A stretch of 64,000 nucleotides of DNA from IMG/VR virus record IMGVR_UViG_2880395615_000010. The stretch is one strand, 5' to 3'. Of the stretch, positions 1 through 6,000 are shown piece after piece; position 1 is the stretch's first letter; the number at the start of each line of letters is the position of its first letter. The position numbers are program-made. This DNA comes from a virus. Lineage: Duplodnaviria; Heunggongvirae; Uroviricota; Caudoviricetes.

Positions 1-3000
1 ACTTGGGATACTTAAGGTGGTAACAGGCATAAAAACCTCATTCAGTAATTCATATCAGTTTGCAGGATGTTTCATTAAATAAAATAAAGGGTAATGTTCA
101 TTTCAATTACCCTTTATAACGAAGTTTCCTCTGGTATCGTCATAAATGCATTCTTCATGTTTTACAATTATTGATGCCGTTATTGGTTCCCGGGTCAGTG
201 GGTGGGGTAAGCCTTCACCAGTCAAACGAGAAAATGCAGCGGCATCAAATAAAGTACATACATCTGAACCATCTGAATTCTTCACAAAAATACCTTTTTC
301 AGGCTGCTCCAGTGTAATTGGACATTGAAGCACCTCACCAGGACAGTGAAGTTTTTCAATATCAACAGTAAAGGTACATTCCGATATTTTGGCCTGCAAA
401 GAGTTCTCTTGTCGTTGCGCCACCATTCCAGGAAGCACGCTTAACACCCTGTTTCTGAGCGCATCAACTCCATCATTAAAACCAATATTCAATAATTCTG
501 CATAAACCAGTCCCAGCCCTTCACTTTCTGCTAAAAAACGGCCTGTATCTGGCATATAAGAAACTCTAACTCTCTCCCCTCCCAGGAGAAATCCACCAAT
601 CTGCCCTTCCATTACCTGCTGACGCATCTCCGCCATCTCATTCGCGAATGAAGTCGATGATAGATATGATACTAATCCAGGCATTACCATATTCCTTCAT
701 ACAGATAAATATTTCCTCTGGGCTTCATAACAAACATCTCCCTGACATGACAACAAAAACCGGAGCCGGACTCCGGTTTTTGTGAATCCGTCGGCTATTT
801 CATCCCGCCAATATTTCCCCGTCAGCACGCCAGATTTGCAGCGGCCTTACCACTCACTGTATATGCTTTTTAGCTGCATCCAGTACACCAATTACCACAT
901 CCTTATACCCTGAACATCTGTAGCATTTCATATAAGCAACTGGCAGTTAACATATAGCTTGGGTAATATTTATTTCACTTATCCTTTATGACAAAGTTTC
1001 CTTTGGTTTGGTCATAAATACATTGTTCTTGACTTACAATCATTGATACCGTTATTTCCTCTCGTGTCAATGGATGAGGTAAATCTTCACGAACTAAACG
1101 TTCAAATGCATAAACATCAAATAAGCAGCATACTTCTGAGCTCTCTGAATTTCTGACCAATACGCCTTCTGCTGGTTGCTCCAGTGTAATTGGACATTGA
1201 ATAGCCTCAAGCGGGCACTGAAGTCTCTCTGGACAAACAGAAAACTTACATTGAGATATTTTGTTCTGAATACTCTCTTGCAATTGTGCTTCACCTGAGT
1301 CCGAAAGCATACTTAGCATTCTCTCACCAAGGGCTCGAGGACCACTATTAAATCCCAAAAGCAATAACTCAGAAAGCAATCCGCCATTACCGCCACTGGA
1401 TGAAAAGTGCCCATTAGTAGAATCATACACAATACTGACAGTTTCACCACCGACTGTAATATCTCCGCGCCCATTGGCTACAATTCGGGCACGAACAACC
1501 TCCACCCCAAGATTAAATGAATGTGATCTAATATCTGAGGTTAATGGCATAACAAAGCTCCCTATTTTAATTTGAACTCCAGACTTAAATAGCTGTAACA
1601 AACATCCCCCATACGTGACAACAAAAACCAGAGCCGGACTCCGGTTTTTGTGAAGCTGTCGGCTATTTCATTCCGCAAATATTTTCCCACGTCCCGTCAG
1701 CACGCAGGATTTGCAGCGGTCTTACCACACACTGTATCTGCTTTTTATCCGCATCCAGTATCACCACCTGCGTGATTACCCTGGCCTGCTCCGGAATAAT
1801 ACCATTCTCATCGGACTCCAGGATGTCTGCCGGCCCCAGTCGCAGTTGTGCTGTAAGCGACTGCACGTGTTCACGGCCATCATGCTTTCCGCAACCACAC
1901 AGACGCTGCATAAGTTTTTTTAGTACGTTCATGTCATTCTCCTGTTCTGCCTGTATCACTGCCCACTTCATCCAGCCCCTTAACATCCTGCCACGGCCCG
2001 TCACCAAACCTGACCTGCAAATGCTGAAACAGCCCCTGAACCTGTGTGGCATCTTTGGGGTCAAGAAAGGTCAGTCCGGTGATGAGCGCACCATCTGTAC
2101 CCGGGAACCAGCCATTGCTGTTTGTCTCAATAATGCTCGCCGGCCCCAGACGAAAACGGATTTGTGTCTCCCCCGGGTCGCCCTTCGGTCCCTGAGGTCC
2201 GGTTGCCCCCACCGGGCCAGCCGCACCTGTTTCTCCTTTCGGTCCCTGTGGGCCTGCCGGGCCTGCCGCACCGGTATCTCCCTTTGGACCCTGTGGACCT
2301 GCATTTCCCGTCAGACCGGTCTCTCCCCGCTCTCCCCTGTCACCTTTCGGCCCCTGCGGGCCTGCCGGACCAGCATCACCTGCCGGTCCCCGTTCGCCGG
2401 TTGCCCCGACAGGGCCGGTGTCACCGCGCTCTCCCTTATCACCCTTCGGCCCCTGAGGACCCGCGGGCCCCTGTTCCCCCTTTGGCCCGGGAGGTCCCAC
2501 CACGGTGGGGATTCGGTTTACGGCCTCTTCCGCCGCTATCCTGCTTTGTTCCGCTGACTGTGCGCTTTCTGCTGACTCCCGGGCTTTTTCTGTTGCGGTC
2601 GTTGCATCCCTGGCTGCATTACCGGCTGCACTTTCTGCCGTCTTTCTTGACAATTCAGCTTCTGCTGCACTTTGTGATGACTCACTGGCTTTTTGAGCGG
2701 CCGCAGAAGCCGAGGACGAGGACGCATCCTCTGACTGCTTTGCTGAGGCTGCACTTTCTGCCGCCTGCCGGGCTGACTCCGATGCATCCCCTGCTGAAGT
2801 GTCAGCATTTGCAGCGCTCTCTTCTGCCTGACTGGCTGATATGCCAGCATTCCTCGCGGACGTCTCCGCCTCTCCGGCATTCTTCTTCGCCTCCTCAGCG
2901 TGACGCGCCGCTTCTTCCACCATCAGTTCAAAACGACGCAGTGCCTCCGGCCGGACGTCATCCTCCGACATGGCACCGAGAAAATCATTCAGCGTCCCCG

Positions 3001-6000
3001 GTTGAGAATCTTCATACACGGTGATGGTCCCGGCATGTGACGGCGGGAATCCTTCCACCAACAGAATAACGCTGTACTGACCGTACTCAACGTCCATGCT
3101 GTAACGCCCGGCTTCATCCGGATTTTCTGAGGCCAGGGTGTTCACCACCACCGTGGTGCTGTTACGTTTTGCTTTCAGCTGGATTGTGCAGTTCTGTACC
3201 GGTTTTCCTGTGCCGTCTTTCAGTACACCTGAAATCTTTACTGCCATATTCACCCCACAAAAAAGCCCGCCTGAACCGGCGGGCTGTCATAACACTGTGT
3301 TACCTGGCTAATCAGAATTTATAACCGACACCCACGATGAAACCGTCAGTGCGCCAGTCGCCACTGCCGGAGCATTCATAAGCAATATCAATGGCCACGG
3401 ATTCGGTCGGGTTAACCTGCACGCCAGCTCCCCACGCCAGAGACGTGTTGCTGTGGCGACCGTCATCACTTCCGGTCAGCACGTCGTGCGTTTTCCCCTT
3501 GTTGTCAGTTACGCGGAGATAATCCCCGGAGAAAGTCGACACACGGCTGTAAGCCATACCCGCCATCGCATACGCGCTGAACCATTCATTCACGCGCACA
3601 GACGGCCCCGCCATCACGCTGAACCAGCGGTTACGCACGGAATCTTCATGCCAGCGGGTATCGCTGTAACGGGTAAGCTGGCGATTCTTGTCTCCTGCAT
3701 AGCTGAACGACGTCACCAGCCCCAGTGTGTCCGTAAACTCATAACGGTATTTCACGTTAATCCCGTTCAGATCATCACTGCCGGGAACGTTCGTCGAGGC
3801 ATGAAGATACCCCGCGCTCAGCGTGGACTGATGTTCAGACGCCCATGCAGGCGCACCGGATACGGCCAGACAAATGGCTGCGGACAAAATGGCGGCATAA
3901 AGTTTACGCATAATTACCTCTCGCTTTTCTGCAATAAAAAAGGCGTCATTTCTGACGCCCGTTCTGGGTTATAAAATTCAGCTGATACTGATACCTGCTG
4001 TGGATTTTTTCATCACCACAACCAGCAGATCGCTGATACTGGTTGTTGGTGTCCAGTTATTCGCTCCTGATGAAGATACGGTGAATGTCAGTGTCAGCGT
4101 CCCCTGTCCGGCAGGCATATCTATAACTGAGGAAAATACGCCCTGAGCATCCGTCGTGGACTGATTAAAAATCTCCTGACCATTGCGGGTCACTCTTAAC
4201 CGGCAGGTTGAATACCAGTATGACTGTTGGTTATTACTGTTGAAATTCTCATGCTTACCACCGCGGAATAACACTGGCGGTATCATGACCTGCCGGTCAA
4301 ACTTCTGATCATCACTGATTCTTACCGTGATGGTGCCACTGGCATAAGTGCTCGTGCGGGGGAAAGCTTTGCCCACTGTTTTAACGAGATCGCCTTCAAT
4401 CTGGTTCGCGGACAGTTTTCCCAGAACCCGACAGTTCTCATTAATCGTGACGTTGTTGAGCGTCCCTGAGTTCGCATTCACACTGCCACTGATATCCGCA
4501 TTTTTAGCGGTCAGCTTTCCGTCTGATGTCAGGGAAAATGCCGGAGGATTGCCACCACTGGTAATTGTGGGAGCAATAAGGGTCTTAATCAGCGCTTCAT
4601 TGAGAAACGTCTGTCCCCCCTGCGTGACCAGTGCTGGAGTGGTGTTACCGTTCTCCGGATTAATGAACGCAATCCTGTCTGCCGCCAGCAGCACCTGACT
4701 CTGCATGCCGTCAGGGGTGTTCTCAATACCGGCACCAATACCCGCGATATAAAGGCGTCCGTCCTGCATCTGCTGCAGCTTCACTGCCCACATGCTGTTC
4801 AGGTTATTATTTGTATCAACCTGAACCTTCTGTATCTGCTGAATTGCCGCACTCTGGTCTTCCAGTATCTTATTGACGGTCTGCGTGATTTCATTGCTGA
4901 CATCCGTAATGGACGTCCTGATTTCAGCCAGGTCAGGCGCAAGCTGACCGTTATCAATCTGCGTCCACAGCTCCTGAGCCAGATGGGTTTTCCCTATCTC
5001 GCCTTTGAAAAAATCCAGATAGCCGGATGCATCATCACTCGGCTGGCCAACAGCCTCCACAAATGCCGATTTGCCAACGGTGTTCACACTGCGAACATAA
5101 AAGTAATAATCATGGCCCGGCTTAATATTCTGGCCGGAGGCTACCCAGTACAGCGCCGTGCCAAGATAGCGGGCTGTGGTTTCAACCTGCCTGATATCCG
5201 CAATCCGCTTTTCCGAGAACCAGAACTCAAACTGTACCGTCGGGTCATAAACGGCAAGATGCGGCGTGGCGGTTATCTGAAAATAGCCCGGCGTCAGCTC
5301 AATCCTCGACGGTGCTGCCGGTGCGGCAATCCGGAACGATACCGACGCCGGATCACCCTGCTGCCCCCACGCATTTACCGCCCGGACTGTCAGCCTGTAG
5401 TTCCCCGGCGCCAGTTGCCTGAAGCGGTATGTGGTTTCCGTCGTCCGGGCCGTGCTGACCAGCCGCTCACTGCCGTCATCCGCGGCCACGGTCAGGCGAA
5501 GCATGAAACTCACGCCCTTCACCACCTTCGGCGTATCCCAGCGGGCCAGTACCTGATACTCCCCGCTGTCTGCGGTGACTTCGGCAGTCAGGTGCTGCAC
5601 TGCTGGCGGCGTGACACCATTCACCGTGCCGCTCTGGTCGCCGTCAAAGTGCGCCCCGTTATCCACGATGGCTTCTTTTTCCGGTACATGCTGCACGGCG
5701 GTGATAGCATACGTGCCGTCATCGTTCTCACGGATACTCACACAGCGGAACAGGCGCTGGCGCAACGTCGGCAACTTCAGCCCCCACACGCTGTATTCAG
5801 CAACACCGTCAGGAACACGGCTCACTTTCACCTTCACGCCGTCGGTGACGGACTGAACCTCCACGCTGACCGGACTCCCCTGCCCGTCAACCAGGCTTAT
5901 CAGCGTGGTGCCGGAAGATGGCAGCGTGATTTCACGGTCGAGCGTCAGCGTCCGGGTCTGGCTGTTTACCGCCAGCACGCGCCCGCCGGTGCGGATACCG

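Follow-up and report, generated by a model that had tools for sequence, protein, structure and literature searches.

A closely similar lom–stf block in two neighbouring lambda-like prophages probably reflects short-patch recombination within a family-wide module

The window (the whole 64,000-nucleotide stretch analysed) is O55:H7/O157:H7-type Escherichia coli DNA containing two neighbouring lambda-like prophages, A and B, with a very similar lom–stf block. In copy A the order is the final 63 bp of J, then a terminator, lom, a second terminator, the stf-like gene, a fibre-C ORF and a palindromic terminator. The features are as follows.

103..1601, minus strand: effector cargo of prophage A, two nleG genes at 103-690 and 975-1601 (PF06416, E 1e-43 to 1e-44)
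728-890: degenerate copy of the fibre-C 3' end plus palindrome, between the nleG genes
1619..4040, minus strand: copy A of the distal late-operon block (BLAST edge, identity profile, segment tables)
1621..1651, no strand assigned: A5-stem-T5 palindrome at the outer block edge, candidate bidirectional terminator; B counterpart at 46889-46915
1663..1932, minus strand: fibre-C ORF of A, 89 aa (Phage_fiber_C, PF06820, E 4.6e-34); B counterpart at 46930-47199, 7 aa differences
1927..2785, minus strand: perfect 859-bp tract in A, 100% identical to 47194-48052 (run-length test)
1934..3247, minus strand: stf-like side tail fibre gene of A, 437 aa, ATG at 3247 (Pfam, PDB match); B counterpart at 47201-48514, 9 aa differences, all in residues 18-154
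3264..3285, minus strand: lom/stf terminator-like hairpin; identical in B at 48531-48552
3312..3911, minus strand: lom, Ail/Lom outer-membrane beta-barrel, 199 aa (PF06316); B counterpart at 48579-49178, 9 aa differences
3941..3960, minus strand: J/lom terminator-like hairpin; B counterpart at 49208-49227
3978..7460, minus strand: J tail-tip gene of A, 1160 aa (Pfam)
44373..44448, minus strand: 76-bp partial tRNA-Ser att core, lying after the A integrase (43310-44335) and before the B cargo
44858..46804, plus strand: effector cargo of B (Pfam; CB9615 and DEC5B annotation), comprising an espJ ORF at 44858-45607 (annotated in CB9615 as a shorter gene, 654 nt) and, on the plus strand, a tccP-like EspF-repeat gene at 45932-46804 (Pfam)
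46884..49308, minus strand: copy B of this block, matching the espJ/tccP prophage of O55:H7 CB9615 at 99.93% identity
47194..48052, minus strand: partner in B of the perfect tract
49246..52722, minus strand: J tail-tip gene of B, 1158 aa (Pfam)

The stf product is predicted from its domains to be a prophage side tail fibre, with presumptive roles in virion assembly and receptor binding. Its domains run in the order phage_tail_N (PF08400, E 1.3e-68), an Ala/Ser/Glu-rich region, collagen Gly-X-Y repeats (PF01391, E 3.5e-18) and Phage_fiber_C (PF06820, E 3.5e-36), the first and last scoring above cut-off, and residues 3-95 match the PDB tail-fibre chain 9e7m_Ta (E 2e-52). The adjacent 89-aa ORF, which relatives annotate as 'phage tail fiber C-terminal domain-containing protein', matched no tfa-type family in Pfam. 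Lom belongs to the Ail/Lom family over its full length (residues 1-199 on profile 1-199, E 1.3e-119, 397.6 bits against a cut-off of 23). The three terminator-like hairpins all fall within the block and are kept in both A and B, bearing out an earlier statement that the intergenic terminators are part of the repeat. The J/lom hairpin carries a compensatory stem change, T-A to C-G, between A and B, and comes in two haplotypes that track the J C-terminal class.

Beyond each block lies different type III effector cargo, nleG in prophage A and espJ/tccP in prophage B. The two nleG genes sit to the left of block A, and espJ and the EspF-repeat gene sit between the att core and block B, so that the effectors occupy the interval between the tail-fibre genes and the prophage end. 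At ten external loci the same block was followed each time by differing cargo (tccP2; nleB2/nleC/nleH; cif; nleG; Ibe; IS elements). The 76-bp 3' fragment of tRNA-Ser at 44373-44448, adjoined by the integrase of A, is the junction of a tandem double lysogen at the tRNA-Ser site; the outer prophage junctions fall outside the window. The same core flanks B in CB9615 and flanks the integrase of A, beside an intact tRNA-Ser, in DEC5B. Prophage B adjoins yodB and the tRNA-Ser fragment in both CB9615 and DEC5B, and the order at this site in DEC5B is reversed, B then A. None of 5426 complete E. coli genomes searched covered the junction of the A integrase with the B espJ gene.

Positions 1619-4040 and 46884-49308 align colinearly from end to end, with distinct flanks. 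The outer edge (BLAST edge, ∼1619/46884) is the palindromic terminator after the fibre-C ORF, and the inner edge, 4040/49308, lies 63 bp inside the J 3' end, beyond which identity drops to 54–65%. Over 1626-3975, 2279 of 2352 alignment columns are equal, a pairwise identity of 96.9%; the 73 differing columns include 2–3 single-base indels. An identity of about 98 percent, as in the first-pass annotation, was rejected as a pairwise value; the 98% given by the initial alignment appears to be a mean column-majority figure. Sliding comparison of the modules, as had been proposed, gave a block that is sharp-edged and uneven inside: the perfect 859-bp run at 1927-2785 (47194-48052) is set in 1493 other columns that are 4.9% divergent. 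With 73 differences placed over 2352 sites, the longest gap was at most 459 in 200,000 permutations, none of which reached the observed 859 (analytic bound, 3e-13). The tract spans stf codons ∼157–437 (Ala/Ser-rich region, collagen-like repeats and fibre-C) plus the first two codons of the small ORF, and is the low-diversity core of the block family. The whole 18-kb head/tail modules of A and B are colinear and patchy, and the stretches at 11.85–12.25 kb and 16.5–18 kb are also 99–100% identical; the stf-lom block is therefore the longest, not the sole, patch of high identity.

The J proteins are 73% identical overall. The description of J as mosaic, with a near-identical centre and divergent ends, broadly holds (residues 651–750 at 94–96%, the N-terminal third at 64–86%, the C-terminal part at 50–66%); the last 14 residues are identical. 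The tape-measure protein H, said to differ by indels, is 87% identical and has a single 7-residue indel. A sodC insert lies between J and the tail assembly gene in prophage B. The J C-terminal receptor-binding domain class of A is common to DEC5B-A and 2013C-4991, and that of B to CB9615, JB2 and O103:H2 12009. The proposal that receptor-binding J C-termini were kept distinct is accordingly useful as description only: these are two old allele classes that reassort with the block in other genomes.

A family-wide baseline was used to judge the resemblance of A and B. The 859-bp tract found matches in 717 of the 5426 complete genomes, at a median of 10 places per genome. The window shows only two of the ∼10 copies expected in its genome. 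The block is present in 398 phage records, and block A is 96.8–97.9% identical to free Stx phages. Among 10 independent copies (45 pairs), A and B differ at 65 positions over the block against a median of 67, a comparison in which the external copies were picked as good matches to copy A, inflating the similarity of pairs that include it. In the N-terminal segment of stf, A-B is tied for the most divergent of the 45 pairs (27 differences). Positions 1927-3840 of A are 99.0–99.4% identical to prophages of unrelated strains versus ∼97.6% to B, and unrelated copies often share perfect runs of 500–970 bp. The resemblance of blocks A and B is probably that of the family at large, with 95–99% identity and ∼10 copies per genome.

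Site patterns were examined for breakpoints, as had been proposed, and at least four lie inside the block. Copy A combines three or more allele types as a mosaic, in the order A, B, O103-like, B-like, A: A-type to 1926, B-type from 1927 to ∼2708–2785, O103-like over 2786-3669, mostly B-like over 3670-3822 and A-type again from 3840. The N-terminus of its stf is identical to that of O103:H2 12009 and differs from B at 27 sites. Comparison of window A with its ortholog in the sister strain DEC5B gave identical flanks, with differences in four clusters only (2153-3822, 5407-5893, 7866-7875 and 9732-9926) and 0–2 differences in the kilobases between; over 9732-9926, DEC5B-A is exactly of B type. 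On this alignment segment 2153-3822 of A appears to have been replaced relative to the DEC5B ortholog. Within DEC5B itself, prophages A and B share a perfect stretch at 2505-3945 (1441 bp), different from the one in the window. Because of this 1441-bp stretch and the replaced segment, conversion between co-resident prophages does seem to occur in this lineage.

These data support short-patch recombination within the prophage pool, and the best overall explanation is, with good confidence, a family-wide module whose copies are fine mosaics. In this model the 2.4-kb repeat would be the conserved outer late-operon end of lambda-like, effector-carrying prophages of attaching/effacing E. coli, with the different cargo beyond each block forming an exchangeable effector locus. 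Extensive shared sequence would let homologous recombination move patches of tens to ∼1500 bp among resident prophages and incoming phages, making each copy a fine mosaic. The 859-bp tract would be one such patch, derived from B, from another resident copy with that allele, or by inheritance of a widespread allele.

A narrower possibility is that only the 859-bp tract (1927 to ∼2785) was recently copied within the lineage from resident B to A, which we regard as a serious candidate with somewhat less than an even chance. This tract-only reading is compatible with the family-wide explanation, as one of its patches. A equals B exactly over the tract, and B there equals its CB9615 ortholog, which makes this allele the ancestral one in B. 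DEC5B-A, with identical flanks, carries 26 substitutions and a 99-bp indel within the tract, although it is the sole ortholog in the collection and may itself be the copy that changed. Four sites (2646-2660 and 2708) are B-specific against both other parental types, and the separate 1441-bp tract in DEC5B indicates that such events occur between these two prophages. Exact identity over 859 bp is also rare among genomes (of 728 records, no more than roughly the best 18 can match at 100%), which makes a direct A-B event quite possible. Against this, resident B is not the better donor by identity: the unrelated strain 2013C-4991 carries the identical 859-bp allele and JB2 differs from it by 1 nt. 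Equally long runs occur between unrelated copies, and other resident copies of this genome lie outside the window. B is thus a plausible donor of the tract rather than a demonstrated one.

Another source for copy A would be import of a ready-made JB2-like stf allele, which may or may not be its sole explanation. JB2 has nearly the same B-type/O103-type chimera, with 2 differences from A over the whole stf gene versus 27 for B, and import is equally simple for that reason. At the crossover, JB2 and A are distinguished by one informative site (2786), too little to tell independent recombinants from a point mutation.

The first-pass annotation had named an assembly artefact as the finding that would undo its interpretation. 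Mis-mapped reads from ∼10 copies could have overwritten the A tract during assembly or polishing, or A and B could have been joined through the 76-bp att repeat. The repetitiveness of the block family leaves room for such errors, as do the junction absent from complete genomes, the B-then-A order in DEC5B and an exact A stf protein that, with either start codon, has no record in public assemblies. An artefact is nevertheless unlikely to account for the repeat: the 73 clean differences and the distinct flanks are retained, the finished CB9615 genome repeats B at 99.93% and DEC5B the A flank at 100%, the tract edges fall where authentic alleles known from other genomes switch, and the junction, a partial tRNA core with a phage arm to either side, has the make-up of a tandem lysogen.

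That A and B directly exchanged or converted the entire 2.3-kb stf-lom block in one recent event, as first suggested, is very improbable. No other high-identity stretch between the modules is as long, and the edges of this one are sharp, but 4.9% divergence outside the perfect tract already contradicts a single event, A-B is the median pair of its family, and copy A is itself a mosaic with an stf N-terminus of the O103:H2 12009 type. What survives of the earlier claim is that recombination shapes the block and that a patch of A differs by apparent replacement from its DEC5B ortholog. Purifying selection on Lom and the fibre proteins as the only force, with recombination playing no part, can be dismissed almost entirely, since well-conserved proteins (9 aa differences each in stf and lom) leave unexplained a perfect tract that lacks synonymous differences too, intergenic DNA conserved equally, nearest relatives that switch by segment, an incongruence that by itself contradicts it, and clustering in patches of the differences between orthologous prophages.

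Within the family-wide explanation, recombination would be RecA-dependent or mediated by a phage recombinase. The data directly establish what genes the block holds, where it ends, how many copies the family has, the population baseline, the mosaic pattern and a patch replaced by comparison with DEC5B; the enzymes, each patch's donor and direction, and any homology-arm role of the block in swapping J tips or effector cargo are inferences. A non-exhaustive scan of prophage A early ORFs recognised no Rad52-type recombinase; what it did show includes a methylase, DUF968/HNH and an 838-aa protein carrying a 3'-5' exonuclease domain. Chi was considered as a local driver and rejected: the window has 14 Chi sites against 2.9 expected, all at 20.8–43.2 kb in prophage A, and the window scan placed none in or near either block. 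Both results, the early-ORF scan without a recognised Rad52-type recombinase and the lack of Chi near the block, count against the family-wide explanation.

The arrangement agrees with known systems. Exchangeable effector loci (EELs; the term of Tobe et al., 2006, as cited in PMC8112680) of EHEC/EPEC lambda-like prophages such as Sp and CP-933 of O157:H7 likewise have effectors outside the tail-fibre genes and beside att, with different cargo after the same block in every locus examined; nothing essential differs, and only the A-then-B order at tRNA-Ser is absent from the 5426 complete genomes. Effector loci at the very end of lambda-like prophages have been described, and tandem prophages are common (PMC8112680). 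Relative to the J-lom-stf-tfa region of phage lambda, the block is alike in order, strand, Lom family protein and Stf N-terminal domain (PF08400), and its lom is bracketed by terminators, moron-like. It differs in that the fibre gene is short (437 aa) by the standard of lambda's own gene lengths, has collagen-like repeats and Phage_fiber_C, and is followed by an 89-aa ORF repeating that domain. Prophage B, with espJ and a tccP-like gene beside its block, is presumably like Sp14 / CP-933U, the espJ-tccP prophage of O157:H7 at serU. Descriptions of near-identical segments shared among lambdoid EHEC/EPEC prophages, and of their recombination, go back to the first O157 genomes.

Mosaics among lambdoid phages, with a median of 400–500 bp at ∼95% identity, are commonplace; fragments are swapped more often than modules, and stf/tfa exchange has been shown experimentally (De Paepe et al., 2014, PMC3945230). 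Prophage-prophage recombination is documented in O157 (Asadulghani et al., 2009, PMC2669165). The literature consulted held no paper bearing directly on gene conversion between lambdoid prophages of O157, and work on recombination in general served instead. As in lambdoid mosaicism (PMC3945230, PMC2669165), short high-identity patches lie here in a more divergent colinear background, the tail-fibre region is exchanged and resident defective prophages take part; patch sizes are tens to ∼1500 bp versus the published median. The present case adds only the sister-strain comparison, with different perfect tracts in the same two prophages.

The block is a multi-copy, constantly recombining module of hundreds of E. 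coli genomes and free phages, and the finding is real and ordinary. The shared block is an already known phenomenon that matters little as a discovery. It does caution that resident-prophage similarity should be judged against a family-wide baseline before local exchange is proposed, and such repeats complicate assembly. The window and DEC5B may offer a small, clean example for measuring conversion tract lengths and rates between prophages. A more speculative extension, offered tentatively, is that the lineage-specific tracts (1927-2785 in the window, 2505-3945 in DEC5B) reflect ongoing concerted evolution and that the block is a portable homology arm. Concerted evolution of co-resident prophages would then run on the timescale of O55:H7/O157:H7 strain divergence, and the lom-stf-fibreC block would serve to reshuffle the J receptor tips that lie to one side of it and the effector cargo beyond its opposite end. 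On the same tentative footing, the fibre-C remnant at 728-890 between the nleG genes would be a scar of cargo accretion. A third copy of the A5-stem-T5 palindrome lies at 753-783.

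The two lambda-like prophages in the window share the same orientation: A extends from outside the window (before position 1) as far as its own integrase (43310-44335), and a 76-bp partial tRNA-Ser core (44373-44448) precedes B, which continues beyond the window end. Over ~18 kb the two sets of head and tail modules align colinearly, with BLAST identities of 84-95%, and the sliding-window identity profile is a patchwork ranging from 55 to 100%. Within the tail modules, the repeated block (1619-4040 in A, 46884-49308 in B) contains the following features, with coordinates from copy A.

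Anatomy of the repeated block
J 3′ end, minus strand: last 63 bp of J inside the block
3941-3960, minus strand: terminator hairpin after J
3312-3911, minus strand: lom, a full-length Ail/Lom match
3264-3285, minus strand: second terminator
1934-3247, minus strand: side-tail-fibre gene, 437 aa, with phage_tail_N, an Ala/Ser/Glu-rich stretch, collagen Gly-X-Y repeats and Phage_fiber_C
1663-1932, minus strand: 89-aa ORF with a second occurrence of the Phage_fiber_C domain (fibre-C ORF)
1621-1651: A5-stem-T5 palindrome that closes the block

A solved tail-fibre chain matches the fibre N-terminus, and a compensatory T-A to C-G pair in the hairpin after J distinguishes A from B. The type III effector cargo past the palindrome in A consists of two nleG genes; B has espJ and a tccP-like gene with EspF repeats. 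Every annotated locus fetched has the block followed by differing effector or IS cargo, an arrangement known in the literature as the 'exchangeable effector locus' (PMC8112680). Between the nleG genes, 728-890 repeats, in degenerate form (85%), the fibre-C ORF 3′ end and palindromic terminator (1596-1766), and a unit of ~870 bp comprising nleG and this remnant is present twice (89-391 compared with 961-1263). A similar remnant occurs in O55:H7 DEC5B (locus record L002, 4728-4890). The 728-890 remnant looks like the scar of stepwise cargo accretion via recombination at the fibre-C end.

The first-pass annotation described 1626-3975 as ~98% identical to 46892-49245. The repeat is real and aligns end to end, but pairwise identity is 96.9% (2279/2352); the higher figure appears to be a column-majority mean. 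The 73 differences between A and B are unevenly placed: the 859 bp of 1927-2785 in A (47194-48052 in B) form a perfect run; the remainder of the block is 4.9% divergent. The longest gap between differences never exceeded 459 bp in 200,000 permutations. Since the 859-bp run is beyond chance, the block has at least two histories. The J C-termini are distinct, as had been proposed, with receptor-binding domains just 50-66% identical beside this block. Further patches of 99-100% A/B identity, with perfect runs of 323, 242 and 205 bp, are located in the 5′ part of the tape-measure gene and in head genes (11853-12253 and 16573-17987, versus 57899-58299 and 62587-64000), and thus the stf-lom block is not the sole near-identical segment.

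Of 5426 complete E. coli genomes, 717 contain matches to the 859-bp tract (median, 10 places in each), and the best copy is ≥99% identical in 429 records. Phage records with the block number 398; among them are the inducible phages 2851 and BP-4795 and numerous Stx1a/Stx2 converting phages. These phage copies are 96.8-97.9% identical to A's block, equal to or nearer than resident B. As a baseline, differences were counted per segment in an alignment of A, B and ten further copies, drawn from phages and other genomes.

A-B differences by segment, compared with 45 independent pairs
Whole block: 65; median 67
stf N-terminal segment: 27; the maximum of the 45 pairs is 27
lom segment: 20; median 22
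859-bp tract: 0; strain 2013C-4991 also 0 from A and B, strain JB2 1

The tract is the family's lowest-diversity part (median 12 differences in 859 bp), and unrelated copies often share perfect runs of 500-970 bp. Over 1927-3840, A is 99.0-99.4% identical to prophages of unrelated strains versus ~97.6% to B. A and B are therefore an ordinary family pair, and their block-level likeness reflects family-wide conservation, not private exchange.

In O55:H7 CB9615, the prophage orthologous to B has a block 99.93% identical to B's. The only close ortholog of A is in DEC5B, and the two are 100% identical over 1-1669. From 1670 to 12000, differences between the two are confined to four clusters: 2153-3822, 5407-5893 (J centre), 7866-7875 (tail assembly gene) and 9732-9926 (around the M/H boundary), with 0-2 differences across the intervening kilobases. 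Such a pattern is the footprint left by short-patch replacement. At 9732-9926 the DEC5B ortholog is exactly B type, and 50 sites separate A of the window from B. Site patterns across A's block resolve a mosaic.

Mosaic structure of A's block
Up to 1926: A-type
1927 to about 2708-2785: B-type
2786-3669: like the O103:H2 12009 allele (O103-like)
3670-3822: mostly B-like
From 3840: A-type

In DEC5B (L002 and locus record L010), the strain's own A and B are 100% identical over the equivalent of 2505-3945 (1441 bp; stf N-terminus and lom, with the same Lom accession). Their collagen tracts, in contrast, differ at 120 columns, a 99-bp indel among the differences, and the window's A/B pattern is the opposite one. 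Exchange between these prophages, or with a shared third donor, therefore took place independently in each lineage.

B is a plausible donor of the 859-bp tract in A because the allele is identical to B's, is ancestral for B and includes four B-specific sites. An equally identical allele is found, however, outside the pair, in 2013C-4991, and JB2 has nearly the same B/O103 chimera as A (two differences over the whole gene, with the crossover differing at one informative site); the window shows two resident copies only.

The proposal of a recent stf-lom exchange between co-resident prophages thus holds as to recombination but not as to one 2.3-kb event: a single recent exchange between A and B is ruled against by a difference count close to the family median and by A's mosaic. 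The sequence comparisons support recombination in many short patches inside a large multi-copy family. Such short-patch recombination among lambdoid prophage blocks is a phenomenon already known. Homologous recombination that involves resident prophages and incoming phages, a process described for O157 (PMC2669165), fits the pattern. Lambdoid mosaics have a median of 400-500 bp at ~95% identity, fragment exchange is commoner than module exchange in these phages, and stf/tfa exchange has been shown by experiment (PMC3945230). The early ORFs of prophage A that were scanned yielded no recognisable Rad52-type recombinase, and a scan of the whole window found no Chi sites in either tail module. Chi (GCTGGTGG) occurs 14 times in the window versus 2.9 expected, always within 20814-43176, a part of prophage A that spans head-proximal, lysis and early regions; the minus strand carries 12 of the 14 sites. 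PMC12315714, on Chi-rich lambdoid phages, offers a comparison.

The duplication is unlikely to be an assembly artefact, a concern raised at first pass: the copies retain clean differences and distinct flanks, and A and B are each reproduced in an independent finished genome. The junction between the prophages could possibly be a mis-join through the 76-bp repeat, as it is absent from all 5426 complete E. coli genomes searched. Against this, its structure is that expected for a tandem lysogen, with a phage-type tRNA core and phage arms on either side. The core carries a phage-type compensatory variant (GGTGGAG...CCCCCACTCC), versus the native form in CB9615 (GGTAGAG...CCCCTACTCC). The same core recurs in both relatives: in DEC5B at A's integrase, adjoining an intact tRNA-Ser, and in CB9615 at B's cargo, adjoining yodB. 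The prophage order is A then B in the window versus B then A in DEC5B.

Prophage B stf is annotated as frameshifted in CB9615 (locus record L001, 11830-13144), and its J gene has an internal stop in DEC5B (L010, 1-3433). Neither ORF is interrupted in the window; prophage decay therefore varies among sister strains. Unlike A, prophage B has an insert that separates J from the tail assembly gene (~52723-53573); its product is a Cu/Zn superoxide dismutase (sodC), and the gene lies on the opposite strand. Prophage A carries a cluster of three tRNA genes (Arg-tct, Arg-tcg and Met-cat) at 29626-29875.
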